From a virus (lineage: Duplodnaviria; Caudoviricetes): 25,710 nucleotides of DNA. Numbering within the stretch: the first letter of the stretch is position 1; the number at the start of each line of letters is the position of its first letter. The stretch covers positions 1-25,710 of IMG/VR virus record IMGVR_UViG_3300033513_000044; one strand, written 5' to 3'. A program made the translations under genes and the position numbers. Under the pieces are notes generated by a model that did no database searches, was not told the origin of the DNA, and worked only from the letters and a program-made list of their open reading frames with translations. Shown here piece by piece: positions 1 to 20,581 of this stretch.

Positions 1-543
1 GCTCTTAGCCTCCATACTGTAATTGCCGATGTCGGTATTCTGTCCGACCGTGAATCCGGCAGTGAAGACCGGCGTGCCGGTGAAGGTCTTTGTCCCGCCG
101 ACGCTCTGATCGCCGCTGGACAGGACCGCTTCCGTGGCCGCGACATTGAGTTTGCCGCCGCTGGTCAGTTGCTTGACCGCCCCGTTCTCGTCTTTCCAAA
201 ACAACTCCGTGACGCCGCTGACGGCCTTGGCGTAGACGGCCCCCTCGTCAGGGTCCAGAGTCGGGTCTGCCGCCAGAGCCCCCTGGAATGTCACCTTACG
301 ATGCTTGCCCGCGTCGGCGTCACTGACCTGGGTCCCCGTCAAGGGCCAATAGTGATCGACGTTCTGCCGCTCTTGCAGGGCCTCTTTCGCCTCGCGGATT
401 CGATCATCCAACGTGGCCGGGGGGTCGCTGCCCGGCGGGGTCGCTGTGTCGTACGTCGAGGACCATCCGGCCAGCAGTAGCGACAGGAACGCCACTTGAA
501 CGCACACCAGCAATAACTGCAAAACCATAACGCGCTTAGTCAT
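1..543 (-). CDS. Tail-fibre-like protein, 5' part (runs off the window), with predicted N-terminal signal peptide
   Basis: Absent from the ORF track because it has no stop in the window. ATG at 543 overlaps the adaptor stop (ATGA); frame open for 181 codons to base 1: MTKRVMVLQLLLVCVQVAFLSLLLAGWSSTYDTATPPGSDPPATLDDRIREAKEALQERQNVDHYW...GDQSVGGTKTFTGTPVF. The 'TP.GSD....DD.IR..K' segment and 'DQSVGGTKTF' resemble the N-terminal anchor and shaft motifs of podovirus tail fibres (recognised by eye). Confidence 0.8.
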   Translation of the reverse strand, partial: MTKRVMVLQLLLVCVQVAFLSLLLAGWSSTYDTATPPGSDPPATLDDRIREAKEALQERQNVDHYWPLTGTQVSDADAGKHRKVTFQGALAADPTLDPDEGAVYAKAVSGVTELFWKDENGAVKQLTSGGKLNVAATEAVLSSGDQSVGGTKTFTGTPVFTAGFTVGQNTDIGNYSMEAKS

Positions 544-1151
544 AGGGAAGTCTCCACAATGGCTGGATCGTGAGGCAGGGACAATGCCCGCTCCTGCTTT
601 TGCCCCAGATACCGGGTATTCCAGACCTGCCACGCCTGATAGTTGTTCAGCCCGTACTTGGCCGCCACTTCTGCCGTGACGCCGAATTTGATGCACCGGT
701 CCCACTCGGCGGGAAATTCGATGGGCTCCAGGGCCTCGGCGTGTCGGCGGTAGTACCATATCCGGGTTGTGTAGTTGCCGCCCGGCGGCGGGTACAGGTA
801 GATTTTGCCGCCAAAGGCCAACTTCGCCGCCGGGGTCGAACGCAGAGCATTGACGTTGCCGCTGCACAGGCGGCGATATTCCCGCCAGCCCCCGCGCAGC
901 GTCGGCAAGGGACTGCCCTCGTCGCTTTCGGCATCGACGCACACGCTGATTATCGCCCCCTGCACGTCCAGGCAATCGGATGGATAATCCAGGTACAGCG
1001 ACGTGGCGGTCAAGCCCTGCGTGTCGTCGTACCCCCGCAACACGAGCAAGTCGGCCAGATCGTCCAATACAAGACGCAGCTCCTCGTCAATATCCGTCTC
1101 GTGACGCCTCAGCCGCGAATTGACAAACGACAGAATGTCGCTTTTGGTCAT
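540..1151 (-). CDS. Head-tail adaptor / tail tubular protein A-like virion protein
   Basis: ATG at 1151 overlaps the upstream stop (ATGA); 203 aa (track starts 2 codons earlier at GTG 1157). N-terminal helix MTKSDILSFVNSRL, then KIYLYPPPGGNYTTRIWYYRR and IEFPAEWDRCIKFGVTAEVA, a pattern typical of podovirus adaptor proteins. No signal peptide. Confidence 0.7.
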   Translation of the reverse strand: MTKSDILSFVNSRLRRHETDIDEELRLVLDDLADLLVLRGYDDTQGLTATSLYLDYPSDCLDVQGAIISVCVDAESDEGSPLPTLRGGWREYRRLCSGNVNALRSTPAAKLAFGGKIYLYPPPGGNYTTRIWYYRRHAEALEPIEFPAEWDRCIKFGVTAEVAAKYGLNNYQAWQVWNTRYLGQKQERALSLPHDPAIVETSL

Positions 1152-3694
1152 TGCCACAATCCCCCTAATTTACGCAACAGCTCCCCATCCGCCGCCTGAA
1201 TTTCAAACAGCGAATCGGACGCCGGGACAGTCACCCAAGACCACAGCATTGTCGCCTGTTTGGTCGAGCCGTTGTACGTGTCGATGATGCCGGATTGCCC
1301 GGCCCCGGTGCCGCCGTAAATGACGACCCGGTTGCCGCGATAGATGTCGTTCGTCGCCGACGCGCCCGTATCCAGAGTGACCGTCGTGGCTGTGCCGCCC
1401 TGGGCCGTGTTCTTTCGCAGTGGCGTCCAGCCGCCGCCGGTGGACGACGGGGACAATTCGACCGCGTTGGTCGTGAATCGGTACGTCCCACCATCGGCCT
1501 CGACCATCGTATTGACTTTGTCCGTGGCCGTCTTGATGGTTTGCAGGTGCCCGCCCGACGCCGATGCCTTGGTGCCGTCGATGCCCAGAGCTTGGCGCAT
1601 CTGCTGCTTTTCGTTGTCCGTCCAGTCCAAAGTGGCGGGCACGGGCGCTTGCTCCAAGGCGTTGGTCGTGAGCCGATAGACTGAGCCGTCCAGTTCCAAA
1701 GCCGTGTTCATCTTGTCGATGACGGTATTGACATCCTGAATCAAGCCCCCGGCCCCGGCGGTCTTCGTGCCGGTGACACCCAGGGCCGAACGGATGTTTT
1801 CCTTCTCACCGGCCGTCCAGTCCGTGGCCGCCGCCGCCGCCGGGCTTTGCTCCAATGCGTTGGTCGTGTAGCGGTACACCGTACCGTCAAGCTCTAAGGC
1901 CGTGTTGAGCTTTTCTGTCACGGTGTTCACGTCCTGAATCAGGCCGCCCGCGCCTGCCGTCTTTGTTCCGGCGACGCCGAGAGCCGAACGGATGTTTTCC
2001 TTCTCGGCAGTTGTCCAGTCGGTTGCCGCTGCCGCCGCCGGGGATTGCTCCAGGGCATTGGTCGTGTAACGATACACTGCCCCGTCAAGCTCCATCGACG
2101 TGTCGAGCTTGTTCGTGGTGGTTTGCACGGTTTGCAACTGGCCGCCTGACGCCGTGGTCTTCGTCCCGGCGACGCCCAGGGCCGAACGGATATTCTCCTT
2201 CTCACCGGCCGTCCAGTCCGTAGCGCCCATCGGACCCAATTCGAGGGAGTTCGCCGTGAGTCGATAGACCGCCCCGTCAAGCTCCAGGGCCGTGTCCACC
2301 TTATCCGACACGGTTTTCATGGTTTGCAGTTGCCCGCCAGCCGCCGTGGTCTTATCGCCGGTGACGCCCAGAGCGTCACGAAGTTGCTGTTTCTCTGCCG
2401 TTGTCCAGTCCGTCGCCGCCGCTACGGCCGGGCTTTGCTCCAAAGCGTTGGCCGTGTAGCGATAGATAGAGCCGTCAAGCTCCAGCATATCGTTCACCTT
2501 GCCGGTGACGGTGTTCACGTCTTGGATCAAGCCCCCCGCCCCGGCCGTCTTTGTTCCGGCGACGCCGAGAGCATGGCGGATATTCTCCTTCTCACCGGCC
2601 GTCCAGTCCGTGGCCGCCGCCGCCGCCGGGCTTTGCTCCAGGGCATTGGTGGTATACCGGTAGACCGCACCATCCAGTTCCATCGACGTGTCGAGCTTGT
2701 CGGTCGTCACCTTGACCGCCTGCAACTGGCCATCCGCCGCCGTCGTTTTGTCGCCAGCGACGCCCAGGGCAGAGCGAATCTGCTGTCGCTCAGCAACCGT
2801 CCAGTCCACTGCGCCGGACGGGGCCGGGGATTGCTCCAAAGCGTTGGTCGTGAACCGCCAGACCCCGCCATCGGCCTCCATTGCCGTGGCAACCTTGTCC
2901 GCCGTGGTCTTGATGCTCGCAATGTCTGCCAGCCGGGCGCTGTTCGGTTCGTTCACCCATACCTTGTCGGCGATAGCGTCTTTCTTGGCGTCGATAGCCT
3001 GCTCGGCCTCGGCCTGCACGTCATTGATCGTCGCGACGCCAGCCGCTTTGGAGATTGCGACCGTGCGGTTATTCCATACGCCGTTGGGCTCGTTGAACGC
3101 CGTGGCATAGTCCGTGTAGAACACGTTCGAGAAGTTCGCCAGGGTTTGTGCGGAGCCATTCCACGCCCTCACGTCGCTGTTGACCGCACCGGCCGCGATG
3201 GACAACTCCCCGGCCCCAGTCCCATTCTTGACCGTGACTTTCGGATAGCCTGCCGTATCCGGGGTCGCGACGTTGGCGCTAGCCCACTGGGTGACGTTCG
3301 CCGGGATCGCGCCGGAGCCGCACATACTCTCGTAGGCGACGGCCGAGAGCACCACGTACTCTTGCGGCACGCACACGGCGTTGGGGTCGTACCACTTCAC
3401 CGTCAGGATGCCCCCCGTGCCGCTGTCGGTCGCATCGAAGGGGACGTTGTAGTAGCCGTCCTTATCGTAGGTCAGTGCCCCGGCAGAGGTTTTGACGGTG
3501 AAGGCCCCGCCATTTTTGGATAGTTCGATATGGTTGGCGTGCAGGGTCAGTCCCGCCTCTGGCGTCACACCATCGGTCTTGTCGTACATGGGACCGAATT
3601 TGAGTGTCCCGGATGCCCCTTGCTTGATGAAGCCCGACAACCCGTAGGCGGGCAGGGACAAAGTCAGCAGCAACAGCAGTGTAGCGCGTTTCAT
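1148..3694 (-). CDS. 848-aa putative virion fibre/stalk protein with signal peptide and tandem ~66-aa repeats
   Basis: GGAG RBS; ATG 3 nt after the upstream stop. MKRATLLLLLTLSLPAYG signal-like leader; N-terminal beta domain (KQGASGTLKFGPMYDKTDGVTPEAGLTL...LSKNGGAF...DGYY); 7 full repeats plus 1 partial; C-terminal TAQGGTATTVTLDTGASATNDIYRG...GGTGAGQSGIIDTYNGSTKQAT module of a kind I recall from uncultured phage structural proteins. Confidence 0.75.
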   Translation of the reverse strand: MKRATLLLLLTLSLPAYGLSGFIKQGASGTLKFGPMYDKTDGVTPEAGLTLHANHIELSKNGGAFTVKTSAGALTYDKDGYYNVPFDATDSGTGGILTVKWYDPNAVCVPQEYVVLSAVAYESMCGSGAIPANVTQWASANVATPDTAGYPKVTVKNGTGAGELSIAAGAVNSDVRAWNGSAQTLANFSNVFYTDYATAFNEPNGVWNNRTVAISKAAGVATINDVQAEAEQAIDAKKDAIADKVWVNEPNSARLADIASIKTTADKVATAMEADGGVWRFTTNALEQSPAPSGAVDWTVAERQQIRSALGVAGDKTTAADGQLQAVKVTTDKLDTSMELDGAVYRYTTNALEQSPAAAAATDWTAGEKENIRHALGVAGTKTAGAGGLIQDVNTVTGKVNDMLELDGSIYRYTANALEQSPAVAAATDWTTAEKQQLRDALGVTGDKTTAAGGQLQTMKTVSDKVDTALELDGAVYRLTANSLELGPMGATDWTAGEKENIRSALGVAGTKTTASGGQLQTVQTTTNKLDTSMELDGAVYRYTTNALEQSPAAAAATDWTTAEKENIRSALGVAGTKTAGAGGLIQDVNTVTEKLNTALELDGTVYRYTTNALEQSPAAAAATDWTAGEKENIRSALGVTGTKTAGAGGLIQDVNTVIDKMNTALELDGSVYRLTTNALEQAPVPATLDWTDNEKQQMRQALGIDGTKASASGGHLQTIKTATDKVNTMVEADGGTYRFTTNAVELSPSSTGGGWTPLRKNTAQGGTATTVTLDTGASATNDIYRGNRVVIYGGTGAGQSGIIDTYNGSTKQATMLWSWVTVPASDSLFEIQAADGELLRKLGGLWQ
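1449..2881 (-). repeat. Intragenic tandem repeat, ~198 nt / 64-66 aa unit, 7 full copies plus 1 partial
   Basis: Consensus LELDGAVYRYTTNALEQSPAAAAATDWTAGEKENIRSALGVAGTKTAGAGGLIQDVNTVTxKxxTx is directly visible. Near-identical DNA such as ccttctcaccggccgtccagtccgt occurs at ~1801, ~2197 and ~2587. Confidence 0.95.
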
Positions 3695-3697
3695 GGG

Positions 3698-6600
3698 TTA
3701 TCTCCGTTGGCGATAGTGGTGCATTAAAATGGGGGTGACGGCCGCGCCGCCAGCGCCGCCGCCGAGGGACAGATTCTCCAAATACCAGTTCGACCGCGAC
3801 CCTGCCGAGCCGTCCGAGCGCCCGGACCAGGGCACCATGTAGCGATAGGCCGGGGTCGTCGTCGCCGTCACGGCCAGCGCCGCGACGAGGGTCTGCTCAT
3901 AGCCCCCCGTCCAGATGTGCAGTTGCCAACCCGTGCCGTTGGTGCGCTTCAACTCCATGTAGTACAGGGTAGCCATCGTCAGCAAGTTCGTGCTGTCACT
4001 GGCCTCCTGCGTCATGCCGTCATAGACGCGAAGTACAGCGCCGGTTGTCGTGTAATCGACCCACACACTGTGACTTGTCGGTGAGCCCGTGACTGTGTTG
4101 AAGCAGCCGACTTCGTCGGCCATGCCCGTATAGCCGTGCTGCCCGGCCGTCCACGTCCCGCCCGGATTGCCGTACCATGCCCATCGCAGGGTCAAGTCGG
4201 CTCCAAAGTGCCATTGGCCGAAATCCTTCCACAGGACCGTGCCGTTGTCATTGTCGCACGAGCCGGTGACGCGGGTGCTCGTGACAGTCATCGTGGAGTC
4301 CAGGTCATAGCTTTCCGTGTAGGTCAGCAGGTCCTCGTACTGCGTTGTCGGGGGGCAGACGTACGCCCCCAGCTCCCAAGCTGCCCCGTAGGCGTCCTGA
4401 TCCAGTGTCGCGACACCGGACGGCCAACTCGACAAGCTCGACAGGCCCACGTCGAACGGAGATCCCAGTGTCACACCCGCGTTGACGAACGGCGAATCAC
4501 TCAGCAGAGAGTAATCGTTGGTGACGGTGTCGGCGAATCGCGGTGTGGCCGTCGAAAGGGAATAGGTCCCGTAGGTCTCCGTCTGTTGACCGGCGGCGAA
4601 GCCGTTGTAGGAGACCGTCGCCACGCCGGTGATAATCTGCTGGGTCGGGGTATCGTCCAACACGGCGTATCCGGCATCCTGCCAGAGGATATTGTTCGTG
4701 ACAAGTAGCGGCGAAGCGGCATTGTTGGCGACGGTTGCGGCGAAGCGGATCGCGGCCGTAGGGCAAGAAGCCACGGTATTGTTGAACACGCGGATTTCCG
4801 TCAGATCGGCCGTCACGCTTGCCCCGGTAGAAAAGTGAATCCCGCTCGAACAGTCGCGAATCACGTTGCCCCACAGGCGGATGCCCGTAGTAGGCCACGC
4901 GTCCTGCTCGATGACCAGTGACACTCCATCGACCACGTCCTTTTTCGGAGCGGCATTGCCGCCGTAGATGAGGTTCTGGTACACGTCCGTCTGTGTCGCC
5001 CCGTCCAGGTGGATTTGCCCGGCGACGCCGGGCTGGCCGTTGTCGTGACATAGGTTCTGATAGATGAGCCCGTTGGTCGATCCGTACTTGGCATTGATCC
5101 CGGCAAGGAAGTTGTCGTGGACATTGTTGCAGCGAAGGGTGAAGCCCGACACGTTCTGCATCGTCACGGCCTCGTGACCGGTATCGGATTCGAGATAGCC
5201 GGTATTGTTGTAGGCCACTTGGCAATCCGCGATGGTGACATTGGAGACGAGAGGCTCCGTGGCCGGGCCGACGATCCCGGAATCCTTGCTCCAGGTGACG
5301 GCGCAGCCGGTGACGGTGACGTTCGCCGCCTGTGTGCCGCCGGTGCTTTTGAGGCAGATGCCGCGACCATAGGACTGTGTCACGTCGATATTCTCGATGT
5401 CCACCCAGGGACTGGTCACTTGCAGCAGGCCCGTCACGCGGCTGTTCGGATAGAGCGACGCCTCCACGCCGGGTGCCGTGAACGCCGTGGCCGGATTCGA
5501 GGCGCTGTACACGTAGAGCAATCCGGCAGACCAATACCATTCATACATGGCGTCGATTGTGCCCACCGACGTTTCCAGCGTGCCCCGCGCAGCATTGAAG
5601 AACATCTGCGTCGGCTCCGTCGCCAGGGACGCTTTCCACACGCTTGTCGCGTCGCCGAGAAACTCTTCGATGGTGCCGGGCGCGGTCGTGAAATCCTCGA
5701 TGCCGCCGCCCTCGCCGAAATCCAGATTGTTCGTGTAGCCGGTGTGGGTGTAGCCAGCGCCATTGTTGTAGCTGGCGACGGCGTAGGCGTACCGGAAATC
5801 GTTCTGCTCCCCGACGCCGCAATCCAGCGTGCCTTCGTGGACGTGTACCCCGTTGGGGTGATAGTCCCCGGTGTGGACGTGCCAGGTATACCGGCCGGTG
5901 GCGTTGACTCCTGCGTCGTCGTCGCGACTGACCGTGACATAGTAGACGGTGTCCAGACTGAGCGTGAAAACGCCATCGGTTGCCGCAACGCCGTCTTCGC
6001 ACTTACGAAGTCGCATTTCCGTCCCAGCCCCGTACAGGTACACGCCGATATAGTCGTCCTCTTCCTGCGCTGTGCCCTCCAGGAGATAGGGGGTATTGAT
6101 TTCGTTCATTAGGACCCAGCAGTAGGCCCACGCGCTGCCCGATCCGTCGTCGGCCATCGTGCGAAACTTGTGGACGAAGTCCCCTGCGAAGTGCCCAGCT
6201 CCCATGTCCCGCACGACGTGGGCCGTCGCCTGTTTCGTGAGCGCCGTCCAACTGACCTGATTCGTTGCGACCGTGATCGTGCTTTGTGGGTCCGTCTCCG
6301 TCCACAGGGCCGCCCCGCCGCCCAAATCGACGTTCTGCACGAAGCCGCTGCATGTATTGCCGTAGGTATCGTTCTTAGCGGCAATGGCGTAGAGGTACTG
6401 GAAATCGTTCTGCTCCCCGGCGGCGCAGTCTTTGGTCAATGTAGCTACATGCGTACCGGCCGGGTGATAGTCGCCGGTGTGAATCTCGACCACGACTTGG
6501 CCGGTGGCGTTGGCCCCGGCGTCGTCGTCACGCGTGACCGTCACACAGTACAGCGTATCGGCCGCCAGGGTCACGTTTGCCGGACCTGTCATGGAGCCGT

Positions 6601-9151
6601 CTTCGATGAAGTACAGGCCCACTTGGTACGTCCCGGCGCTATTGAGGTACAGCAGCAGCATGGCATCGTTGGTTTCCAGGGCCGTCAGGTGATCGCTGTA
6701 GCTGTCCACGAAGTTCGCCAGCATCCACGGCACGGCCCGGGCGCTGGCCGTTGCCCCGGCCGCGAATTGGACTTCAAACTTCTGCGTGAAGTCGCCGTTG
6801 AACGTGTCGGTCTTGTAGAACCATGTATCCGTCGCGCGGGTCAAGTTGGTCCACGTCACTTGGTGACTGGTGACGGCCAGTACCCCGGTGGGGTCCGTCT
6901 CCGTCCAGTCACTACCGGTGCCGCCTTCCTGGGTCCAGCCGCTCGACAACAGCGCCGTGCCCTTCAACAGGGGATTGCCCCCAGAGCCATAGGCCCCGAT
7001 CTTGATGTGACTGGCCTGGGAACCGGAAGAGGTGACAAGCAAGGGCTCGCGCCACGTATCGCCCCGCTGCAACAGGACCGTCGAACCGGCCGCCAAGCCG
7101 GGAATGTCACTGAGTTGGTTCCACGCCGTGGAGGGACTGATGCCATTGCCGCCCTCGGCGGCCTGGGCGTCCACGTAGTAGGTGCCCGCCCCCGTCGCGA
7201 CCACATTGGCCGTGACGCTCTTGCTGGCGTTCATCGTGATATTCTTGGGATTCTCACTGCCGGTCAAGTCCCCGGTCCATTCACTGAACACGTACCCGCT
7301 GTCGGCTACCGCCGTGAGCGTGACCACTTCGTTCTGCCCGTAGAGGCTCTTGTCCGGATTCTTCGTCACGGTGACGTGCGAACCGCCCACGGTCAGTGCC
7401 CAGCCCGCGAAGGACGTGTACTCTTTGGCCCCGATATCGGGCTTGGAGCCGGAATAGGCCAGGGCAACCCCCTGCCCGCTTGTCCAGGTCAATGCCGCGT
7501 CCAACGTCAGGGTGTGCGTGGTATAGTTCACCACTGTCACGTGCGCTGTGGCCGTCTGACCCTGCAACTGGATCGTGTCACCGGTGACTATCCCGTAGCC
7601 GTCGCAAAAGTAGCGGCTGTCGGCCACGACCATCGACGTACCGGACCCGGCCCCGTTGGTGGTCGTCAGGAATTGCCCGGCGTCGATGCACGGACTTGTC
7701 GGCTGGAGGGTGAAGTCATAGAGGGTATGGACCCCGGCCGGATTCACCGGCAGATTCACCAGCAAGGGATTGGCGTTGAAGCTGGCCGTGTCACAGCCCA
7801 ACGCGAGGATCGGACTGGCCAACTGCCCCGGCCAGTTTGCCCACGTCTCCGTGTGCCAATTGTTCGTTCCAATGAAGTGGACCAGCAGTGCCCCGCCCGC
7901 CGGGAAATACAGGTTCCCTTGAATCGTCAGGTCCGGTGCCGTCTGCGCGATCGCGACATCGGCGCTGCTGTGGCCGCCGAGGATGTTGTTCTTCAAGTTG
8001 ACGTTGGTTCGCCCGCCCCAGCCCTCCAGGCCCGCGAAGGTTGGCCGGTACGTGGAGACCCAGGAGCTGCTGGAGCCGGTGTAGTCGCGATTGTTGTACA
8101 CGACGGTATTGTTGTAGACCTGATAGCCGTTCTCACAGTGAATGCCGCCCTGGTTGTCGTACAGGATGTTGCCACGGACAATCACGTCACGACTGCCCTC
8201 GTCGCTGCCGTGCATGATCGTGCCAGCGCCCGGGAAGCGGTCAAAGCCGTTGCCCGGTCCCTCGTTGTCGGCCGTGCAACCGTAAATGATATTGCCCTCG
8301 ATCAGCATGGGACCGCCGCCTTTCAGGTCAATCCCATTCTCGGCGCAGTAGCGAATCACATTGTTGCGAATCACGACCTTTTGATTGCTGTCGTAGTCGG
8401 TCTCTTCCGGCGGCAGGTTGTAGTTGCCCTCGAATTGGATGCCGTCTTCCTGATAGGTGTAGTCGATGAAGTTGTTCTCGACCAGCCCATAGTGCGCACC
8501 GTAGCCCTGGGCGCTGAAGTCGATCGCGCTATTGAGGGTATTCGTGACTGTGTTGCCCCGAATCACGGTGTACGTCGCCCCCAGGGCGACATTGATGCCG
8601 AGCACCGGCCAACCGGTGACTGTGTTGTTTTCGATGGTCGTGTAGTCGCCGTAGGAGACCTGAATCCCGAATTCGTCGCCGCCGTCATATGTCCCTGTCC
8701 CCTGGCAGATGATGGTGCAGTTGCGGATCGTGTTGTGATCGTAGGAGTCCCCATAGATGAGCACGATGCGAGGATCGGCGACGCTGGCGGGATTGACGTG
8801 CTTCAAGGTCAGACCGTCCAGGGTGATGTAGGACGCCTGCAAATAGGCGACGGCGATTTGGCCGCTGACACCACGGACGGTGACGACGTCGCTACTGTAG
8901 TTGCGATAGGTGATGGGACTGCCCGCCGTGCCGGAATTGGTGGGATTGATGATCTGGTTGTACGTGCCCGCCCGGATGTATACCGTGTCCCCGGCAACCA
9001 GGGTCGTGTTGGCCTTATTGATCGTGGCCCAGGCCGTCGAGAGACTCAGGCCGGAATAACTGTCACTGCCCGTGGCCGCGTCGATGTAGTACGTCGTCGC
9101 CGCCGCCGGGAGTGTCACAGACAGAACCAAAATGGAGGTGAGAAATCTCAT
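3698..9151 (-). CDS. ~1817-aa multi-domain protein: signal peptide, two right-handed parallel beta-helix (pectin-lyase-like) modules, InlB-B/Flg_new-like repeat, three lectin-like domains; putative glycan depolymerase/adhesin
   Basis: ATG at 9151 overlaps the upstream stop (ATGA; track starts 6 codons earlier). MRFLTSILVLSVTLPAAA|TTYYIDAATGSDSYSGLSLSTAWATINKA...AGDTVYIRAGTY is a typical start of secreted beta-helix proteins; many I.NN.I coils; SPCIDAG...PDIGAKEY end motif; VTLTAVADSGYVFSEWTGDLTGSENP repeat; second YYVD...GDTWRE module. Confidence 0.8.
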   Translation of the reverse strand: MRFLTSILVLSVTLPAAATTYYIDAATGSDSYSGLSLSTAWATINKANTTLVAGDTVYIRAGTYNQIINPTNSGTAGSPITYRNYSSDVVTVRGVSGQIAVAYLQASYITLDGLTLKHVNPASVADPRIVLIYGDSYDHNTIRNCTIICQGTGTYDGGDEFGIQVSYGDYTTIENNTVTGWPVLGINVALGATYTVIRGNTVTNTLNSAIDFSAQGYGAHYGLVENNFIDYTYQEDGIQFEGNYNLPPEETDYDSNQKVVIRNNVIRYCAENGIDLKGGGPMLIEGNIIYGCTADNEGPGNGFDRFPGAGTIMHGSDEGSRDVIVRGNILYDNQGGIHCENGYQVYNNTVVYNNRDYTGSSSSWVSTYRPTFAGLEGWGGRTNVNLKNNILGGHSSADVAIAQTAPDLTIQGNLYFPAGGALLVHFIGTNNWHTETWANWPGQLASPILALGCDTASFNANPLLVNLPVNPAGVHTLYDFTLQPTSPCIDAGQFLTTTNGAGSGTSMVVADSRYFCDGYGIVTGDTIQLQGQTATAHVTVVNYTTHTLTLDAALTWTSGQGVALAYSGSKPDIGAKEYTSFAGWALTVGGSHVTVTKNPDKSLYGQNEVVTLTAVADSGYVFSEWTGDLTGSENPKNITMNASKSVTANVVATGAGTYYVDAQAAEGGNGISPSTAWNQLSDIPGLAAGSTVLLQRGDTWREPLLVTSSGSQASHIKIGAYGSGGNPLLKGTALLSSGWTQEGGTGSDWTETDPTGVLAVTSHQVTWTNLTRATDTWFYKTDTFNGDFTQKFEVQFAAGATASARAVPWMLANFVDSYSDHLTALETNDAMLLLYLNSAGTYQVGLYFIEDGSMTGPANVTLAADTLYCVTVTRDDDAGANATGQVVVEIHTGDYHPAGTHVATLTKDCAAGEQNDFQYLYAIAAKNDTYGNTCSGFVQNVDLGGGAALWTETDPQSTITVATNQVSWTALTKQATAHVVRDMGAGHFAGDFVHKFRTMADDGSGSAWAYCWVLMNEINTPYLLEGTAQEEDDYIGVYLYGAGTEMRLRKCEDGVAATDGVFTLSLDTVYYVTVSRDDDAGVNATGRYTWHVHTGDYHPNGVHVHEGTLDCGVGEQNDFRYAYAVASYNNGAGYTHTGYTNNLDFGEGGGIEDFTTAPGTIEEFLGDATSVWKASLATEPTQMFFNAARGTLETSVGTIDAMYEWYWSAGLLYVYSASNPATAFTAPGVEASLYPNSRVTGLLQVTSPWVDIENIDVTQSYGRGICLKSTGGTQAANVTVTGCAVTWSKDSGIVGPATEPLVSNVTIADCQVAYNNTGYLESDTGHEAVTMQNVSGFTLRCNNVHDNFLAGINAKYGSTNGLIYQNLCHDNGQPGVAGQIHLDGATQTDVYQNLIYGGNAAPKKDVVDGVSLVIEQDAWPTTGIRLWGNVIRDCSSGIHFSTGASVTADLTEIRVFNNTVASCPTAAIRFAATVANNAASPLLVTNNILWQDAGYAVLDDTPTQQIITGVATVSYNGFAAGQQTETYGTYSLSTATPRFADTVTNDYSLLSDSPFVNAGVTLGSPFDVGLSSLSSWPSGVATLDQDAYGAAWELGAYVCPPTTQYEDLLTYTESYDLDSTMTVTSTRVTGSCDNDNGTVLWKDFGQWHFGADLTLRWAWYGNPGGTWTAGQHGYTGMADEVGCFNTVTGSPTSHSVWVDYTTTGAVLRVYDGMTQEASDSTNLLTMATLYYMELKRTNGTGWQLHIWTGGYEQTLVAALAVTATTTPAYRYMVPWSGRSDGSAGSRSNWYLENLSLGGGAGGAAVTPILMHHYRQRR

Positions 9152-12100
9152 TTGAGAAACAGCAACCACCCTTCGTAGTCCGGGCCTGGGGCCACGGTGA
9201 TCGTCACGGTATCGCTGCGCACATCCCCGCTGGCCTCGTCGCGCAGCTCCATCGTGACAGTGTGCGTGCCGGATGTAAACGCAACCACGGGGGTCTCGCC
9301 GGTCGCGATGGTGCTACCCCCCTCTTTCCATGTATAGGTCGTTTGCGTCTGATTCGCCCACCAGTTCTTGGAACCGTTGGCGTCCAAGTTGACAGTCAAT
9401 CGCTGGTCATAGGCGACACTCTGGTCACTGCCTGCATCCGGCCACAGCAGATAACAATAGGGATGGACCGTGAAGTAGTCGGCCCGATGGTGATCGTAAA
9501 ACTCTTCCTGCCAGTCGCCGTAGAAGCTCTGCTGCGTGAATTGCCCGCCGGTGACTTGCCAACGGTAATCGGCGTAGTCGAGCAGTGCATCGAAGTCCCC
9601 CGGCCCCGTTGCCCCCAGCAGGTACAGGCACATTGCCGCCGACACGAAGGGCTCGGCGCTCAGTTCGTTGGTCTTGGGATAGCCCGGTCCCGTCCAGGTT
9701 GGGACGCGACGGCCCTGCGATGCAAAGTCGGGACAGCCGATCCAGTCGCTACCGGACCCAGCCTCCGCCTCCGTGACAAGATGGGTCTGCATCGCCTCTG
9801 CGAAGTACCACGCGTCACTCGGCGTGGCCGTCCCGCCCCACAGGTAGTCGCCGGTCTTGGCGAGCATGGCCTTCAAGGCGGTATGGTTCAACGCCTGCGC
9901 CGCCAGGGCGGCCGGGACAAGGCGTCCCTCGTACCAGTCCCCCAGATTGATCGTGCCGGTTTTCACCCACCCGCGATAGTCGCCATAGTTGGCGTTCAAG
10001 ATGCCCCAGATGTCGAGACCATACTGAATCAGGTAGGCCGCCAGAGCTTGCTTCTCGGCGTCGGTGAAGTTGCAGGACAGCTTGAAGGTTGCGACGTTGA
10101 CCTTGTTCGCCAATTCCTGGCCCGTGCGGGGCAGGTTCGCCCTGGCCATCCCGTGCGGATAATCGGAGGGGTCCAGGGCCCAGTCCAAAACAGGATACGC
10201 GAACCAGCTTTGGCAGGTCGCGAACGTGGGCGCACCGGCGGGCTCCGTGAGCTTGGGCAGGGCCGAGAAATTGATACTGGCCAGATTGTAGTTGACGGCC
10301 TTGTTGGTCCCTGTCCAGGGCGGCCGAAAGCTGTTGGCTGGCGGGGCCGACGCCAGCACAGTCAGGACCGCCGCCGCGTTGGCCCAGGTCTGGTCTTGCT
10401 CCGTCGCATACTCACGGAGAAAGACGATACTCGTACCGGCCGGGACACTGACCCACGTCGAGGGAGTGCCAATGTCCAGCGTGTCGATGATGTCCAGGCT
10501 TGCCGAATAGTTGCTGCAATGGCAGGACAAGCCCTGTGGGACGGCCAGCCCGACGTACGGGTCCAAGGCCGCGTGAACGTGCGTAGCACTGCCAGGGGCA
10601 GGAGTGACGCCAACCAGCGTGATCCCGCTGCTGTCGGCTACCCAGACATCGTTTGGGCAAATGAATTTGCCCGTGGTGCCTGCCGAGTTGTAAAACCAAC
10701 TGACGGTAATCGGGTAGCTCGTGCCCGCGTAGAAGTCGGACTCAAAGACCGTGACTCCACCGTTTTGGCCGATGTAGGCCCCGATGTCCCATCCACTGCC
10801 GTAGTCGCGCTGATCGCGGGTGACGACCCCCAACGGCCAGGAAGTGGTATTGCCCAGGCAATCGTAGTAAGGTGATCCGGCATCCGCGCCGGCATTGATG
10901 AACGGCGACGTGGATTGCAGGGCGAAATCGTACGTGTCGGCATTGACGAAGCCCGCCGTGGAGGTCTGCACGTAGCCGCTGCCCAGGGCCTCACTCGACT
11001 GACCGGATCGAAAGCCGTTATGGGTGATCGTGGCCGTGGCGATAAGCTCGTTGCCGCTGCTGTCGTCCAGGATCGCGGAGCCGCTGTCTTGCCAGAGGAT
11101 ATTGTTGCGGATGGTGATCGGCGCAGCCAAGTGCCCCGATGTCCCGCTGGCGGCGTAGATTGCCCTGTCCGAGCAGGAATAGAACGTGTTGTTCACGATG
11201 TACAGGTTGTCCATTTCGTAGGTGGGCGCGCCCCCAACCCACATTCGCAGTCCCTCCGAGCAATCGCGAATCACATTGCCCCAAATGCGGATATTGTTCG
11301 TCGGCTTGGCGTCCAATTCCATCGCCAGCGAAATCCCCTGCACGTTGTCTTGATAGGGCGCGCCGTCGCCGCCGTAGATGTAGTTGTGGTAGATGTCAAT
11401 GTGTGTGCCGCCATCGACGTAGATTTGGATGATGTTCTGGTACAATGGCACATAGCCATTCGAGTAGATCAAGTTCTCGTAGACCTGCCCGTTCGTGGCC
11501 CCGTACTTGCAGTCGAGCCCTTCCTCGAATCCGTTGTGCAGGACGTTGCGGCGAAAGATGAAACCCTGCACGTTCTGGAAAGTCACGCCCTCGTGGGCCT
11601 CTGTCCCGTCGATCTTGCACGTATTGCTGTAGGAAATGTCGCACTCTTCCACGGTCGCATTGGACGACGGCGGCGACGTATCGGGAAAGCACACACCACT
11701 CGACCAGGACCAATCCACGGTGCATCGGCGAATCACGACGTTGTCCCCGTGCTCCACTTCGATGCCGCGACAGGCGCTCTTGCGCACTGCGATATCCTCG
11801 AAGCGGACCCAATTGGCCGTTGCCCGCAAGAGACCGTCCACCGCACTGACCGGATAGACCGACGCCTCGATGCCGGGGGACGTGTAGAGCGTGTCCGGGT
11901 CGCTCGCCGCGTAGACGTACAGCGTCCCACCGGAATAGTACCAGTCGTATTGTGAATCGACGGCACCTTGGGATGCTTGTATATTGCCCCGCGTGCCGTC
12001 GAAAAAGACCTGCGTGGGAGTCAATGCCAGCGATGCCTGCCAGACGTTGCCGCCCGACGTGGCCGTGAAATCCTCTACACCGCCGCCTTCCCCCAAGTCC

Positions 12101-14523
12101 ATGTTCTGCGTGTAGCCGGTCTGCACGGCACTGGAGCTATTGTTCCAGGAATCCACCGCGTAGACATAGCGGAAATCGTTCTGCTCACCGACGCCGCAAT
12201 CCAAATACCCTTCGCCTACGTGTGTGCCACTGGGATGGTAATCGCCCGTGTGGACGTGCCAAGTCACTCGGCCGGTAGCATTGGCCCCGGCGTCGTCGTC
12301 ACGCACGACCGTGATGTAATACAGGGTATCCAACGTGACGGCCAGATAGTTGGCCGTCGCGACGCCGTCTTGACAGAGACGAAGTCGGGCCTCGCCTGTC
12401 CCGTAGAAGTACACACCGATATAGTCGTCGGTCTCTTGACTTGTCCCCTCGTGCAGGTAGGCGCTATCCGTGAAGTTGGCAACCACCCAGGGCAGGACCC
12501 ATCCACCGGCGTCACTGGCGTCGATGTACGCTTGGAACTTGTGTGTGAAGTCTCCGCTAAAGTGCCCAGTTCCCATGTCCCGCACGACGTAGCTCGTGAC
12601 GTTCTTGGGCATAGCCGTCCAGGTGACTCGGTTCGTTGTCACTGTGATATCGGCCCCTGGGTCTGTCTCTGTCCATAGGGCACTGCCCCCTCCCGCGCTG
12701 GTCCAGCCGCCGACGAGCAAGGAGCCGTCGATGATCGGGTCGCTGCCAGAGCCGTAGGTCCCTACCACAGTCGGGTCACTGACGGAGCCGCCGGTGCTGA
12801 TCGTCAAGCCCTGCCGCCAATGGCTGTTGCGTTTCAATAGGACCGTGTCCCCGGCCTTTAGGCCCGTGACGTCACTGAGATCGTCCCAGGGGGTCGCGTA
12901 CGTCCCGTTGCCGCCCTCGCTTGCCGCCGAGTCCACGTAGTAGATGTCGGTCGTGTTCAGGTACTCATTATGACCGCCGTCCGGGCTGTTGCCGATGGGA
13001 CGCAGAGTCCCCCAGAAATCCGCCACGGCCGTATAAAGGGTCGTGCCAAAGTCCACTGCATCGGCGGCGGCAACCAAATCGAAGGCGTGCCCGGGCGCGC
13101 CCGACCATCCGGCGGTGAATACGGAGTCTACTTCTTGCGGCCAGTCAAAGGCATGGCTGGTAAACCACGTCCCGCCTGCAAACCACGAGCCGCCCGTGGT
13201 GAATGGGACCGAATTGGAATCGTCGGTCGAATCGCAGTAGACGATATTGCCCGGCAAGGCGGCGTCCATTGCCGTCTGCGTGAAGGAGTCCGAAAAGGAC
13301 CAGATCAGGTTGCCAGTCATATGGCCATCCGTGATCCGGATGTTCGGGGCACAGCAACACAGGAAGATATTGTTGCAGAATTCCAGGTCGGTATCATCGA
13401 ACGTGGCGTGCGGGTACAACAGGCAGGTCAAGTTGAAGTCCATGTTCACGAACTTGTACAGCCCGCCAGCGCCGCGGTCGCATCCGATGACCGTGTTGTG
13501 ATTGATTTTGTTGTTGCCGCCCAGATTGTAGAATTCAAACCCCGCATTGACCGGGTGAATGATGACGTTGTTCGTGATCGTCAGGTCGCGAAATTCCCGG
13601 TCGCTCGGCACGGGATACGTGCGGATGGAGGCTGTGTTGCCGTAGCTGTCCACGACGTTGGCGTTGACGATAGCGCCGCTGGAGCACAGGTAAATCCCTG
13701 TGCCGTGCGTCACCCCGGCTTGCAGGTATCCGGCCGTGTAGAGCTTGGCCTGCTCGTGGATGTAGTTGCCCTGGATTAGGACCGGGTCGTCGGCCGGTCC
13801 ATAGTACCCACCGGCATAGTCGGTCAACGTGAGAATCCCTCCCGCCCCAGTCAGAGAGATATCATTGTTGGTGATCGAAATGCCGTTGCCCACATTGTCA
13901 CAAGAGCAGTAGACGCCGTAGATCGCATTGCGGATTGTGCAGTGGTCAATGGTGATATCGTAGCAACTGGTCAAGCTCACGCCGGACTGAAAGAGCCGCA
14001 CGCCGGTCGTGGTCGTGTAGTCGCTGCGGTATCGCGGATCGCCGGGTGCCGGTTGCAGCGCGCCTTCAACAATGCAGTAGCGCAGTTTGATATTGTGCCC
14101 GGCCAGAATCTCACAAGTGTACGTGAAACTCGGCGGCTGCGTCCCCGGATCGGGGTAGTCGAACGTCACGCCGTAGAAGTCCAGATACCATGCGACGTTG
14201 CCGTTGGCGATTCTCAGTTTGGCAATGACCGGGCTCGACGTGGGGTCAGCAGTCACCAGCAGGTAGCTTGTGCGGGTTGGGTAGCCGCTGGCGGTCTCCA
14301 GGTTCGTGTAGGGGTAATTGCCGGTCATTAGGTACAAAGGGCCGCCGCCGTTGGGGACGTGGTAGATCGCATAGAGCAGGCTGCCCCATGCGGCGGTTCT
14401 CGATAGGCCCGTGTTACCGTCATTGCCGTTGACCGGGTCCACGTAGTAAGCCGCCCCGCCAGCGATGCCAGACAGGGCCAACACAACCACCGCCGCCAAA
14501 TACGACATCTTGCCGTGTTTCAT
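9148..14523 (-). CDS. 1791-aa multi-domain protein: signal peptide, two parallel beta-helix modules, lectin-like insert, uncharacterised ~430-aa domain, C-terminal PKD/Ig-like domain; putative glycan depolymerase/adhesin
   Basis: ATGA overlap with the upstream gene. MKHGKMSYLAAVVVLALSGIAGGA|AYYVDPVNGNDGNTGLSRTAAW; beta-helix coils; SPFINAG...WDIGAY end motif; C-terminal DAGSDQSV...LDANGS...YTWKEG...GTHTVTMELRD...SDTVTITV is PKD-like. Confidence 0.8.
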   Translation of the reverse strand: MKHGKMSYLAAVVVLALSGIAGGAAYYVDPVNGNDGNTGLSRTAAWGSLLYAIYHVPNGGGPLYLMTGNYPYTNLETASGYPTRTSYLLVTADPTSSPVIAKLRIANGNVAWYLDFYGVTFDYPDPGTQPPSFTYTCEILAGHNIKLRYCIVEGALQPAPGDPRYRSDYTTTTGVRLFQSGVSLTSCYDITIDHCTIRNAIYGVYCSCDNVGNGISITNNDISLTGAGGILTLTDYAGGYYGPADDPVLIQGNYIHEQAKLYTAGYLQAGVTHGTGIYLCSSGAIVNANVVDSYGNTASIRTYPVPSDREFRDLTITNNVIIHPVNAGFEFYNLGGNNKINHNTVIGCDRGAGGLYKFVNMDFNLTCLLYPHATFDDTDLEFCNNIFLCCCAPNIRITDGHMTGNLIWSFSDSFTQTAMDAALPGNIVYCDSTDDSNSVPFTTGGSWFAGGTWFTSHAFDWPQEVDSVFTAGWSGAPGHAFDLVAAADAVDFGTTLYTAVADFWGTLRPIGNSPDGGHNEYLNTTDIYYVDSAASEGGNGTYATPWDDLSDVTGLKAGDTVLLKRNSHWRQGLTISTGGSVSDPTVVGTYGSGSDPIIDGSLLVGGWTSAGGGSALWTETDPGADITVTTNRVTWTAMPKNVTSYVVRDMGTGHFSGDFTHKFQAYIDASDAGGWVLPWVVANFTDSAYLHEGTSQETDDYIGVYFYGTGEARLRLCQDGVATANYLAVTLDTLYYITVVRDDDAGANATGRVTWHVHTGDYHPSGTHVGEGYLDCGVGEQNDFRYVYAVDSWNNSSSAVQTGYTQNMDLGEGGGVEDFTATSGGNVWQASLALTPTQVFFDGTRGNIQASQGAVDSQYDWYYSGGTLYVYAASDPDTLYTSPGIEASVYPVSAVDGLLRATANWVRFEDIAVRKSACRGIEVEHGDNVVIRRCTVDWSWSSGVCFPDTSPPSSNATVEECDISYSNTCKIDGTEAHEGVTFQNVQGFIFRRNVLHNGFEEGLDCKYGATNGQVYENLIYSNGYVPLYQNIIQIYVDGGTHIDIYHNYIYGGDGAPYQDNVQGISLAMELDAKPTNNIRIWGNVIRDCSEGLRMWVGGAPTYEMDNLYIVNNTFYSCSDRAIYAASGTSGHLAAPITIRNNILWQDSGSAILDDSSGNELIATATITHNGFRSGQSSEALGSGYVQTSTAGFVNADTYDFALQSTSPFINAGADAGSPYYDCLGNTTSWPLGVVTRDQRDYGSGWDIGAYIGQNGGVTVFESDFYAGTSYPITVSWFYNSAGTTGKFICPNDVWVADSSGITLVGVTPAPGSATHVHAALDPYVGLAVPQGLSCHCSNYSASLDIIDTLDIGTPSTWVSVPAGTSIVFLREYATEQDQTWANAAAVLTVLASAPPANSFRPPWTGTNKAVNYNLASINFSALPKLTEPAGAPTFATCQSWFAYPVLDWALDPSDYPHGMARANLPRTGQELANKVNVATFKLSCNFTDAEKQALAAYLIQYGLDIWGILNANYGDYRGWVKTGTINLGDWYEGRLVPAALAAQALNHTALKAMLAKTGDYLWGGTATPSDAWYFAEAMQTHLVTEAEAGSGSDWIGCPDFASQGRRVPTWTGPGYPKTNELSAEPFVSAAMCLYLLGATGPGDFDALLDYADYRWQVTGGQFTQQSFYGDWQEEFYDHHRADYFTVHPYCYLLWPDAGSDQSVAYDQRLTVNLDANGSKNWWANQTQTTYTWKEGGSTIATGETPVVAFTSGTHTVTMELRDEASGDVRSDTVTITVAPGPDYEGWLLFLK

Positions 14524-15152
14524 CGCCTGCGTCCCGTCATTACCGCAAAGACCGTGGTCACGTCTGCCTTGCCGTCGAACAGCACTCTGATTCGCGTTGC
14601 CCCCTGGTGGTTGAAGCTCACTTCCCCGATTCCGTTGGTTGTCCCGCTCACTTGGACCGGGCTACGCCAAGACTGCTGGCTGCTGGAAATGGGACCATCG
14701 GCCCAGGTGTGATTGGGATCGGCCACTTGACTGGTCCGGTAGTGAGAGCCCCAGCCGTAGGCCGGATCGTGGCTCATTTGCAGTTGCCCGAAATGCAGCG
14801 TGACGTTGGCGACGTGGATTGCCGAGCCGTACTCATGCACCACGTAGATATAGGCGTTGGCCGTCCCGCCGTTGGGACTGCCGGGGCCGCTGCCGTCCCC
14901 GTACCCGTAGAAGCTCAGACTGACGGAGTCCCAGTCCTCTGGGATCTGCTGCCACTCGGATACATCGTGCCAGGACGACGTCGAGACAGTCAGGGCCGTA
15001 TCGTTGCTGGAGACCCCGCCCGGGCGCACGTGCTTGTAGCCGTGGGACACTTTGTACTCGGTGGGACTGGCACTCTGGCCAAACAGACCGGCCACCAAAC
15101 CGCCGAGACACAGGACAATCAGGGCACACAGGCAAATGTCACGACTTTTCAT
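14520..15152 (-). CDS. 210-aa hypothetical protein with predicted signal peptide, probable minor virion component
   Basis: AGGAG RBS 5 nt before ATG 15152 (the track's 15326 start overlaps the upstream gene). MKSRDICLCALIVLCLGGLVAGLFG|QSASP leader followed by a beta-rich body; stop overlaps the next ATG. Confidence 0.75.
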   Translation of the reverse strand: MKSRDICLCALIVLCLGGLVAGLFGQSASPTEYKVSHGYKHVRPGGVSSNDTALTVSTSSWHDVSEWQQIPEDWDSVSLSFYGYGDGSGPGSPNGGTANAYIYVVHEYGSAIHVANVTLHFGQLQMSHDPAYGWGSHYRTSQVADPNHTWADGPISSSQQSWRSPVQVSGTTNGIGEVSFNHQGATRIRVLFDGKADVTTVFAVMTGRRR

Positions 15153-15162
15153 GGTCACTCCT

Positions 15163-15214
15163 AAAAAGCGGTCCTGTCGCGAGTGAAAGGGATGGAAAGC
15201 CCCGCGACAGGACC
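15163..15214 (-). terminator. Intrinsic terminator-like hairpin between the decoration gene and the 210-aa gene
   Basis: Perfect 12-bp inverted repeat ggtcctgtcgcg (15170-15181) / cgcgacaggacc (15203-15214), 21-nt loop, followed on the minus strand by GCTTTTT and immediately the AGGAG RBS. Confidence 0.6.
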
Positions 15215-15223
15215 AACCGCCCG

Positions 15224-16048
15224 TCACAGCCCACAGGTAAGAATCTGGTAGGTGATAATCACCGTCATGGTGGTATCGGCACCTGCGTTGCCGCCGTAGT
15301 TGCCGTCGCCGGTGTTCTTCAAACACAGGTTCTTATTGACGATAGTGGACGCCGCATTGATCTCGTCTTTGGCCATATGCCAGTTCGTGATCGTGTCGGC
15401 CGCTGCCGTGATGAATGCGGTAGCCTCAATGACTTCCCCGGCCGCGACCTGAGAAGCGCTGTCCCATCCGATAGCCAGATTGTCCGTGCTTTCGGTCAGC
15501 ACGTTGGTCCCATAGTCGAGAATCAGGACCGCCTCTATCGGCAGAATGATCTTGTCGGCCCCAGGGGCAGGGACAAGCTCGACCGGGGTCGCATTGAGAG
15601 CCTTGATCTGGGCATTGGTCAGTTCGACCGTCACCGTCGCCAGGGACGCCAACTGCGCCAAGTATCGCGGGACGGTGACACGGTTGTTGGACGCCGTCAG
15701 GCCGTTGAACCGGGTCGTGCCCAGGGTCGTGCTGGTGACAGAGACATCGAAGCTGTCTTGGCCGTACCAGTAGAAACTCCCGTTGGACAGGGTCGTATTG
15801 GTGCTTGCCCCCGTCATGGGAATCGTGATCGCCAGGGACAAGTCACGGTCCTTGTACACGGCCGGACTGGCATTCGTGCCTGGGGCATAGATCGTCACGC
15901 CGGTGATGTCCGTGACGGGCTGGTTGTCCTCGTTATGGACCTGCACGACGTGATAGTTGAATCCCCGGCTGCCCTGGGCCCACAGAGCCACGGCCGTGAC
16001 GGCCAACAGGGACCACATAAACAGGTGAAACCAAAGTCGCTTATTCAT
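15224..16048 (-). CDS. 274-aa capsid decoration/cement-like protein with predicted signal peptide
   Basis: GAGG RBS before ATG 16048 (the track's 16543 start overlaps the capsid gene). MNKRLWFHLFMWSLLAVTAVALWA|QG leader. First gene after the capsid gene. The C-terminal VTVELTNAQIKALNATPVELVPAPGADKII motif resembles small proteins commonly encoded right after phage capsid genes; the N-terminal VTIYAPGT...VYKDRD...NGSFYWY resembles head-binding domains. Confidence 0.7.
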   Translation of the reverse strand: MNKRLWFHLFMWSLLAVTAVALWAQGSRGFNYHVVQVHNEDNQPVTDITGVTIYAPGTNASPAVYKDRDLSLAITIPMTGASTNTTLSNGSFYWYGQDSFDVSVTSTTLGTTRFNGLTASNNRVTVPRYLAQLASLATVTVELTNAQIKALNATPVELVPAPGADKIILPIEAVLILDYGTNVLTESTDNLAIGWDSASQVAAGEVIEATAFITAAADTITNWHMAKDEINAASTIVNKNLCLKNTGDGNYGGNAGADTTMTVIITYQILTCGL

Positions 16049-16133: not shown

Positions 16134-17372
16134 CTACGGAATGACTTCCGTGTCGATGCAGTAGATTGCCTCGTCCTCGCCGGGAGTAGTGCCGCCGTGC
16201 GCGTTGAGCTTCGTCCGCTTGTAGCCGACGATGTAGTCGCACACGACACGCGGGATACGCTCGTCAATCCAGCCCTCGTACCAGCCGAGCATCTTGCTCC
16301 AGGCACAGCAAGCCGCCTGAGCGCCAAGGAACAAGGCCCGACAGACGCTACGGCCGCTTGCGCAGGCGTCCGTGGTCGCATCCCGGTTCGCATTGAGCAG
16401 GAAGCCCTCGGCCAGCGTGGTTCCACCGGCCCCGGTTCGCATCGGAATACGGTCGTACTCACTGACAATGACGCCGTACCAGTTGACGCTACCGGGCTTG
16501 AAGATGGGATGATCGCCCGCACGTTGGGCGCACAGAGCGACAAGCTGGTTGAAGCCCACCGAGCCGATTTCGCTCCGCATGGACTGAATCTGATAGGGAT
16601 GCGTCAAGAGGGTGTAGAAATCGCCGATCTTGGGCATGGCCATTTGGTTGCGCTGGTCGCTGAATCCGGCGGCGTCGTTTCGCTGTTGGTAGAACGTCCC
16701 GGCCCGGAATCGCGGCTGCGCCGACAGAATCCTCGCTCGAATCTTGCCGATAACCAGAGTGCCGAACAGGTTGTTCGCCTGCGTACCGGCCGTCAGCAGG
16801 GCATCCGTGGTGTACGCCGTGCCCAGTGCCGGGGTCGCGCCGATGCTCTGGCCGCCGTAGTAAATCCGGTTGGTAGTCGGGTACATGGCGGCATCATTGA
16901 TAACCTCAATGGCCGCGCCCGAGGAGTTCTCGTTGTACAGGCCCGCCAGCGTGTTGACAAGATCATCCTCTTGGGCCTCTTGCCACCAGATGCTCATGCG
17001 GTCCCTGGCGAAGGAGCGAAACTTGTCGGCCCGAAAGATGTCCGTGCGCTGTAGCGACATCTGACCGGCCGCCCGCACGGCAATGGACCGCTCGTGCAGG
17101 GTGATGGACATATTGCGACGGCCCAGGGCCACTTCCAGGCCCTCGTTGTTGCCGTCGTCGCCTTGACCGGCCCCGCTCATAGGCTGATCGCCGGGAATGA
17201 CAATCGTGTCACCCGGTTTGCGGGTCAAGTCCTTTTGTTGAAAGATGATGCTTTCCGGCGTCGTGCCCATTAGGGGCAGGAGCGCCATATTTCGCAGAGC
17301 GTACTTGATCGTTTGGCTCTGCCAAATCTTCTGCGTGTTGGGATCGTTGGTCCCAAAGGTTGTCGATGCCAT
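16134..17372 (-). CDS. Major capsid protein (N4-gp56 / DUF4043-like)
   Basis: 412 aa, GAGG RBS, follows scaffold. Motifs TxFGTNDPxTxKxW, MGTTPESII..KDLTRKPGDTI, G..EG.E.AL, HPYQIQSMR, HPIFKPGSVNWYGVIVSEY and RALFLGAQA match this capsid family. Confidence 0.9.
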   Translation of the reverse strand: MASTTFGTNDPNTQKIWQSQTIKYALRNMALLPLMGTTPESIIFQQKDLTRKPGDTIVIPGDQPMSGAGQGDDGNNEGLEVALGRRNMSITLHERSIAVRAAGQMSLQRTDIFRADKFRSFARDRMSIWWQEAQEDDLVNTLAGLYNENSSGAAIEVINDAAMYPTTNRIYYGGQSIGATPALGTAYTTDALLTAGTQANNLFGTLVIGKIRARILSAQPRFRAGTFYQQRNDAAGFSDQRNQMAMPKIGDFYTLLTHPYQIQSMRSEIGSVGFNQLVALCAQRAGDHPIFKPGSVNWYGVIVSEYDRIPMRTGAGGTTLAEGFLLNANRDATTDACASGRSVCRALFLGAQAACCAWSKMLGWYEGWIDERIPRVVCDYIVGYKRTKLNAHGGTTPGEDEAIYCIDTEVIP

Positions 17373-20014: not shown

Positions 20015-20107
20015 TCACTCCTGATATTTGAGCTTGGCGATAAGGTATCCGATGGACCCCGCCAACAGGCACACACCCACTTGCCAGAGACACAGCCACA
20101 ACATCAT
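20015..20107 (-). CDS. 30-aa single-pass membrane peptide
   Basis: ATGA overlap with the upstream stop; MMLWLCLWQVGVCLLAGSIGYLIAKLKYQE; stop abuts the next RBS, filling the gap exactly. Confidence 0.55.
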   Translation of the reverse strand: MMLWLCLWQVGVCLLAGSIGYLIAKLKYQE

Positions 20108-20433: not shown

Positions 20434-20581
20434 TGCTGTTATCCCTTTTCAGTAATTCACAAATCTCTTGTAACTTTTTGTCGCAACTTCCACACACTAC
20501 CCGCACGTCGCCTGTGACCGTCTTGCGATAGCGGGCCTGTGTGTGGGAGACCTTGCTGCCGCATTCACTACAGAGCCTCAC
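20315..20581 (-). CDS. Small zinc-finger protein (CxxC...CxxC)
   Basis: GTGA overlap with the portal stop; CSEC...CGSC; its 3' end overlaps the next gene by 119 nt. Confidence 0.6.
   Translation of the reverse strand: MRLCSECGSKVSHTQARYRKTVTGDVRVVCGSCDKKLQEICELLKRDNSNGRERTAHRGPIPNPRADQTMADAQGPTGSGHEVSRGML

Follow-up and report, generated by a model that had tools for sequence, protein, structure and literature searches.

Predicted signal peptides on peripheral virion-type proteins in a podophage late operon

Introduction

Tailed phages are held to complete their particles in the cytoplasm. Virion coat proteins with signal peptides are known from the filamentous phages (pVIII and pIII), but these are membrane-anchored and assembled during extrusion, and their phages are not tailed. 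Here we analyse a 25.7-kb viral contig (IMG/VR record IMGVR_UViG_3300033513_000044; hereafter the window, to whose full length all coordinates refer) from an uncultured podophage in which six genes downstream of the capsid gene, including that for the tail fibre, begin with predicted signal peptides, and we propose that these outer parts are probably exported and docked late on a particle built in the cytoplasm.

Export by the host Sec machinery is described for late proteins of tailed phages, in that Lys44 of fOg44 and the signal-arrest-release (SAR) endolysins cross the membrane before lysis and become active when it fails; in the available part of that source (PMC6116005) these are lysis enzymes, not particle parts. 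The available part of a report on Bdellovibrio MAT fibres (PMC10769870) describes phage-fibre-like trimeric adhesins with a signal peptide, but as bacterial surface proteins and not parts of a virion. No signal-peptide export of structural proteins of tailed phages is described in the literature that we searched, and the term ‘signal peptide’ is absent from the structure paper on phi24B, which has the same capsid type by Stx matches.

For the particle itself the closest comparison is the Pa223 tail (bioRxiv 10.1101/2025.06.11.659172; PDB 9NWI, 9NXK), whose order, in the available text of that report, is adaptor, fibre, hub, needle and ejection proteins. The window's relatives share this gene order and have a homologous hub (E 5e-13), and the aromatic hub loop bound by the N-terminal end of the Pa223 fibre is kept in the window's family. 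The Pa223 fibre, however, was modelled from residue 2 and has no leader, whereas the window's fibre and five accessory proteins carry predicted signal peptides. Other close comparisons are the podovirus cement or decoration proteins of KHP40 (7dou), GP4 (8h89_J) and Pam1 (7eel_H) and the tailspike head-binding domains of P22, Sf6 and Pam1. The window encodes an ordinary podophage particle, with a P22-like portal, an N4-type capsid and an SU10-type adaptor; it is the proposed assembly route that is without a described counterpart.

Results

Predicted signal peptides follow the capsid gene

The window holds a single minus-strand late operon that runs from the terminase subunits through portal, scaffold and capsid to five further genes, the adaptor, and a last gene truncated by the contig end. 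We name the six leader-bearing genes by their start positions:

15224..16048, minus strand: 16048 gene, post-capsid protein of 274 amino acids (aa), leader of 24 aa (15977-16048)
14520..15152, minus strand: 15152 gene, protein of 210 aa, leader of 25 aa (15078-15152)
9148..14523, minus strand: 14523 gene, modular beta-helix protein of 1791 aa, leader of 24 aa (14452-14523)
3698..9151, minus strand: 9151 gene, beta-helix protein of 1817 aa, leader of 18 aa (9098-9151)
1148..3694, minus strand: 3694 gene, protein of 848 aa, leader of 18 aa (3641-3694)
1..543, minus strand: 543 gene, tail fibre, leader of 26 aa (466-543) followed by a conserved N-terminal anchor; truncated by the contig end, with 181 residues present

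A sequence-only reading of this DNA had obtained these six starts by correcting for ribosome-binding sites and ATGA overlaps. All six N-termini were found again on the minus strand, and the same six starts were picked by a gene caller whose scoring takes in codon use, ribosome-binding sites and coupling but no signal-peptide term. The caller places the adaptor start at 1151 (ATG). ATGA overlaps are indeed present at 14523, 9151, 1151 and 543, so that the adaptor gene is translationally coupled to both neighbours; the 3694 gene starts 3 nt downstream of the stop of the 9151 gene, and Shine-Dalgarno-like words precede 16048, 15152, 3694 and 543. Promoter-like and terminator-like sites, which could have marked independently acquired (moron) genes, occur at chance level (4 vs 4.8 and 11 vs 13.7, respectively) in a scan that does not cover planctomycete promoters, while GC content is even at 58-63% and the genes are coupled. 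Contigs from sequencing run X1 are identical to the window over 485-1451 and 8823-10100, but X1 is possibly the source sample and hence not independent.

We scored leaders with a heuristic of our own rather than with SignalP, requiring a basic N-terminal region and an uncharged 10-residue stretch with a mean hydropathy of at least 2.0. By this measure six of the seven post-capsid genes have a leader and none of the 11 upstream genes does (Fisher p = 4e-4), in agreement with the sequence-only reading, which had also seen none on portal, scaffold, capsid or the interleaved adaptor. The background is 12 positives among 290 ORF (open reading frame) starts across the six frames of the window, true leaders included, and false positives numbered 4 in the set of 149 homologues of the 3694 protein and 5 in 90 nozzles. 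The six leaders contain neither a lipobox nor a twin-arginine motif, and no second membrane helix follows any of them (highest 19-residue hydropathy 1.48). All six have A or G as residue -1 before the predicted cut; at position -3 there is frequently L, a less canonical residue for signal peptidase I (SPase I). None of the in-frame alternative starts near the cuts has a Shine-Dalgarno-like word; a TTG at residue 19 of the 3694 protein, likewise without one, is exceptional in coinciding exactly with the mature start. That the leaders are unrelated in sequence was broadly right, as forced alignments reach 25-61% identity from leucine runs and share no common motif. These features support reading the window leaders as Sec/SPase I signals that are cleaved, with export as a prediction.

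Leaderless homologues begin at the predicted cut sites

If the leaders are additions to otherwise complete proteins, related proteins should start at the mature end, a check that the sequence-only reading had proposed and that came out as expected for the 543, 3694 and 15152 proteins. Among 109 homologues of the 543 fibre, 58 are positive by the heuristic, and 43 of the remaining 51 start at query residue 24-28, the predicted cut falling after residue 26. In their DNA context, 33 of 34 leaderless fibre copies have no in-frame start upstream, and many abut the adaptor stop. Of the 46 short fibre leaders, a count that excludes 16 long ones, 43 have A, G or S at residue -1, against a frequency of 22% within the hydrophobic region. 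Several long-leader fibres (P0110, P0128-P0130, P0148, P0153, P0175 and P0177; P-numbers denote homologue proteins) have a signal peptide and then an amphipathic second stretch of ~16 residues before the anchor.

The 3694 protein's N-terminal domain has 6084 relatives; 13 of the best 149 have a leader of ~18 residues, and 128 of the 132 heuristic-negative ones begin at residue 17-22. Two homologues of the 15152 protein have a leader (L094 and L096; L-numbers denote loci of relatives) and one is leaderless (L093), starting at about query residue 26. Full-length homologues of the 16048 protein with an intact start all keep a leader, differing in sequence. Because leaderless homologues begin at the predicted cut, the leaders look both cleaved and removable.

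The core mostly lacks leaders across relatives

The remaining assigned genes of the operon, none of which has a leader, are:

23984..24379, minus strand: terminase small subunit (PF16677, phrog_606)
22579..24006, minus strand: terminase large subunit (phrog_979; PF04466 below cut-off)
20578..22575, minus strand: P22-like portal (PF16510, E 2e-53; phrog_156)
17405..18262, minus strand: probable scaffold, from position and composition, with the start from the gene caller
16134..17372, minus strand: major capsid protein, N4/933W/GP4 type (PF13252, phrog_334)
540..1151, minus strand: head-tail adaptor, SU10 type (PF24175, E 2e-9)

Family searches gave no match for the probable scaffold, and the top matches of the capsid protein among cultured phages are at ~23-25%.

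We surveyed 67 loci, left from the 71 of the fibre alignment after removal of three duplicates and of the window's own record; near-identical loci are still among them. Leaders are absent from the scaffold (0/16), capsid (0/19) and portal (0/7) and, with labels assigned by position, from the gene after the nozzle (0/12) and the ejection-position genes (0/30), and they are rare on the adaptor (1/38, a false positive) and the nozzle (2/43). They are present on 26 of 60 fibres, with two further fibres having mis-called starts, and on 17 of 20 post-capsid genes, the others being two truncated starts and one locus without the gene. Other genes of at least 150 aa between capsid and adaptor have a leader in 31 of 39 cases, and those between nozzle and ejection genes in 12 of 18. 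L094, whose capsid is 66% identical to that of the window, has the capsid followed by five leader genes, the adaptor and a leader-bearing fibre, and then a leaderless nozzle and ejection genes.

The proposed division between a leaderless core and a leader-bearing periphery therefore holds across relatives, but it is not absolute, since in a sister clade (L130) the nozzle itself carries a leader and is coupled to a leader-bearing fibre. Of the 18 best homologues of this nozzle, 12 pass the heuristic and 16 are positive by eye; the start of leaderless nozzles coincides with its cut. Such signal-peptide nozzle (tail hub) proteins are seen at L130:2380-4245, in L131 and in P0348-P0365, with two adaptor genes upstream. 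The claim that all peripheral appendages are exported was too strong for the family, in which half of the fibres are leaderless and several relatives lack any leader. Also counting against the sequence-only reading are 80 distant loci with the C-terminal domain of the 16048 protein, where 23 copies have a leader, yet only 19 of 221 neighbouring genes do; beside leaderless copies the figure is 19 of 661. Glycosyl- or methyltransferase-like genes, named by eye, lie within the structural module of L095:5693-9410, L109 and L129:4093-5947 and could modify the particle.

Docking elements and virion-type domains are retained

In relatives, the fibre gene is followed by a nozzle gene whose profile matches the Pa223 hub, as noted above, and the VP1 nozzle. 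The Pa223-like fibre-binding loop of the nozzle and the N-terminal anchor of the fibre are retained whether or not the fibre has a leader, so an exported fibre would most likely still dock on the particle. Pa223 gp60 matches the anchor weakly (E 0.29 over 22 residues), although its gene position agrees, and the C-terminal part of one fibre homologue (P0098) matches many tail-fibre PHROGs.

Disulfide formation had been offered as a reason for export, but the exported proteins show no cysteine excess. The mature leader proteins contain 2, 0, 33, 24, 2 and 0 cysteines, at a density no higher than in the capsid or terminase, and fibres with and without a leader are alike (1.45 vs 1.63 cysteines, p = 0.56; odd count in 28 of 62). 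The benefit of export is for this reason probably not disulfides.

The 16048 gene adjoins the capsid gene, and its protein continues after the leader with a transthyretin-like beta-sandwich and then a jelly-roll domain that in other phages is fused to capsid cement, making it a candidate head decoration. The 14523 and 9151 genes have two stretches in common, one 658 aa long (51%) and the other 297 aa (44%), from either internal duplication or module exchange, and the C-terminal part of the 14523 protein resembles secreted proteins of Phycisphaerae-class genomes. The 9151 protein ends in a short basic tail found in phage genes that precede a 3694-type gene (profile E 2e-7); 50 of the 60 genes in that position have it, compared to 60 of 780 other genes. 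After its leader, the 3694 protein consists of a widespread phage N-terminal domain (3275-3640), for which there is no PDB sequence match, and seven repeats of 64-66 aa (1644-2899). Together, the bodies of the 543, 3694, 16048 and 15152 proteins and the tail of the 9151 protein are supported by comparison as virion-type parts; for the two giant beta-helix proteins, a role as secreted cargo is possible. The basic-tailed, variable protein followed by a 3694-type protein is a widespread unnamed phage pair (L164-L243; window 3698-3745 and 3275-3640).

A probable Phycisphaerae host

The host is probably a member of the Phycisphaerae (Planctomycetota), an assignment that leans on the naming of L085 and on metagenome-assembled genome (MAG) contigs that may be mis-binned. 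The best match to the 16048 protein in the genome collection is a locus in a Phycisphaeraceae MAG with four leader genes after its capsid. Matches to the 14523 protein occur in 66 of the 301 genomes of the Phycisphaerae class (best E 6e-32) and in 19 of the 201 genomes of a control phylum (best E 3e-10); the capsid matches 8 and the fibre profile 3 of 401 genomes. L263 and L264 contain distantly related head modules inserted among host genes (terminase 39%, capsid 29%), the large terminase subunit of the window being 39% identical to that of the element within the Phycisphaerae-class contig of L263.

Discussion

The leaders, their cut sites, the core/periphery split and the conserved docking elements emerge from comparison among relatives. 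For export itself, presence in the virion and timing, we infer a route that we consider probable, in which the outer parts are exported by Sec, cleaved, folded in the periplasm and docked late. Head, adaptor, nozzle and ejection proteins would be built in the cytoplasm, whereas the tail fibre, the decoration-like protein and the accessory fibre or enzyme modules would go through Sec. Signal peptidase I would release an N-terminus identical to that of leaderless relatives, and the mature proteins would fold and accumulate in the periplasm until they dock on the finished, DNA-filled particle, once lysis opens the inner membrane or, alternatively, as the particle passes through that membrane. P22 tailspikes can join heads outside cells. 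As to the benefit, we speculate that folding in the calcium-rich periplasm, as for the host secreted proteins that gave rise to the large modules, together with sparing the cytoplasm both premature docking and parts that bind or cut sugars, is more likely than disulfide formation.

The 14523 protein has no recognised particle anchor, and the leader-bearing nozzle of the L130 clade is difficult to reconcile with completion in the cytoplasm because the P22 hub and needle are required to retain DNA. The family could also be read as a graded series placing an increasing share of the outer virion on Sec, from none (L100, L254 and the integrated elements) through decoration only (L095, L253) and decoration plus fibre (window, L094) to fibre plus DNA-sealing nozzle (L130 clade). 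Assembly of the tailed particle would then be completed in the periplasm, heads and exported tail parts coming together at the inner membrane or past it, and classical lysis possibly following later or not occurring at all; we regard this broader proposal as doubtful. No lysis genes were identified.

Alternatively, the exported proteins may be secreted cargo, such as receptor decoys, superinfection blockers, depolymerases that lysis sets free, or host adhesins that a prophage expresses. The beta-helix/InlB-repeat mosaics of 14523 and 9151, the leaders on the top matches among the secreted host proteins that resemble 14523, the integration of related head modules in such genomes and the Bdellovibrio fibres all speak for this. 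It is harder to reconcile with the coupling of the genes into a late operon around the adaptor, with the phage tail motif by which 9151 is paired with 3694, or with a fibre that is the sole one per locus, sits at the conserved adaptor-fibre-nozzle position and swaps its leader while the anchor stays intact. Overall we consider secreted cargo unlikely, as it is for 543 in particular, though for 14523 it is likely enough, perhaps a little short of an even chance. A quite improbable alternative is that the leaders are membrane tethers, uncleaved or cleaved late, which keep the parts on the cytoplasmic side for assembly in association with the membrane, or that an internal start yields the virion form. 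Two-helix leaders on Mu-like capsid and cement genes in three loci point to hairpin tethers in phages, some of the 16 long fibre leaders have a second hydrophobic stretch, and the TTG in 3694 could serve as the internal start. All six window leaders, however, have a single hydrophobic region and a basic N-terminal end, which by the positive-inside rule places the protein body outside; the small residue at -1 in fibre leaders argues for cleavage, and the internal starts lack a Shine-Dalgarno word.

Less probable still is passage of particles or tail parts through the inner membrane, with completion of assembly in an enlarged planctomycete periplasm and release without immediate lysis. The leader on the sister-clade nozzle would agree with this, as would the enlarged periplasm of planctomycetes (in the available part of PMC5394234) and the release of phage without lysis from a Phycisphaerae strain (in that of PMC10945688). 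Against it, the nozzles of L094 and L103, the nearest relatives in which the gene is present, are leaderless, small holin-like genes (by eye, with no family match) lie beside the fibre in relatives, and the host assignment is itself only probable. Moreover, no mechanism is known to us by which a capsid could pass through an inner membrane that is still intact.

If export followed by later addition is the rule for receptor-binding and decoration proteins, as in the late-docking route that we favour, morphogenesis gains a second compartment, the annotation of starts and of ‘secreted’ or ‘moron’ genes in phage genomes changes, and the wholesale uptake by phages of secreted host glycan-binding enzymes is explained. 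What the family contributes is the trait in a form lacking cysteine pairs, a single gene that has switched repeatedly, and a clade whose nozzle is predicted to be exported; close relatives that differ only by a leader on the same fibre provide a test case.

Other observations

The integrated modules of L264 (G160:C51) and L263 (G250:C60) are short, leaderless portal-scaffold-capsid-adaptor modules that could be domesticated elements; that of L264 is flanked by genes resembling mreBCD on one side and mraZ/rsmH on the other (named by eye), and G250 carries four copies of such a capsid. In three Nitrospirota contigs (L084:9350-11564, L086:10430-11527 and L088:5413-7484) a Mu-like capsid has a two-helix leader of ~50 residues before the gpT domain, a possible head-assembly tether, and in L084 and L088 the gene preceding this capsid also starts with a two-helix leader. 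Within the window, a protein of 109 aa (20104-20433) has a weak Acb2/Tad1 hairpin match (E 0.0035, below cut-off) that would make it a possible anti-defence sponge, with counterparts by position in L001, L094 and L103.
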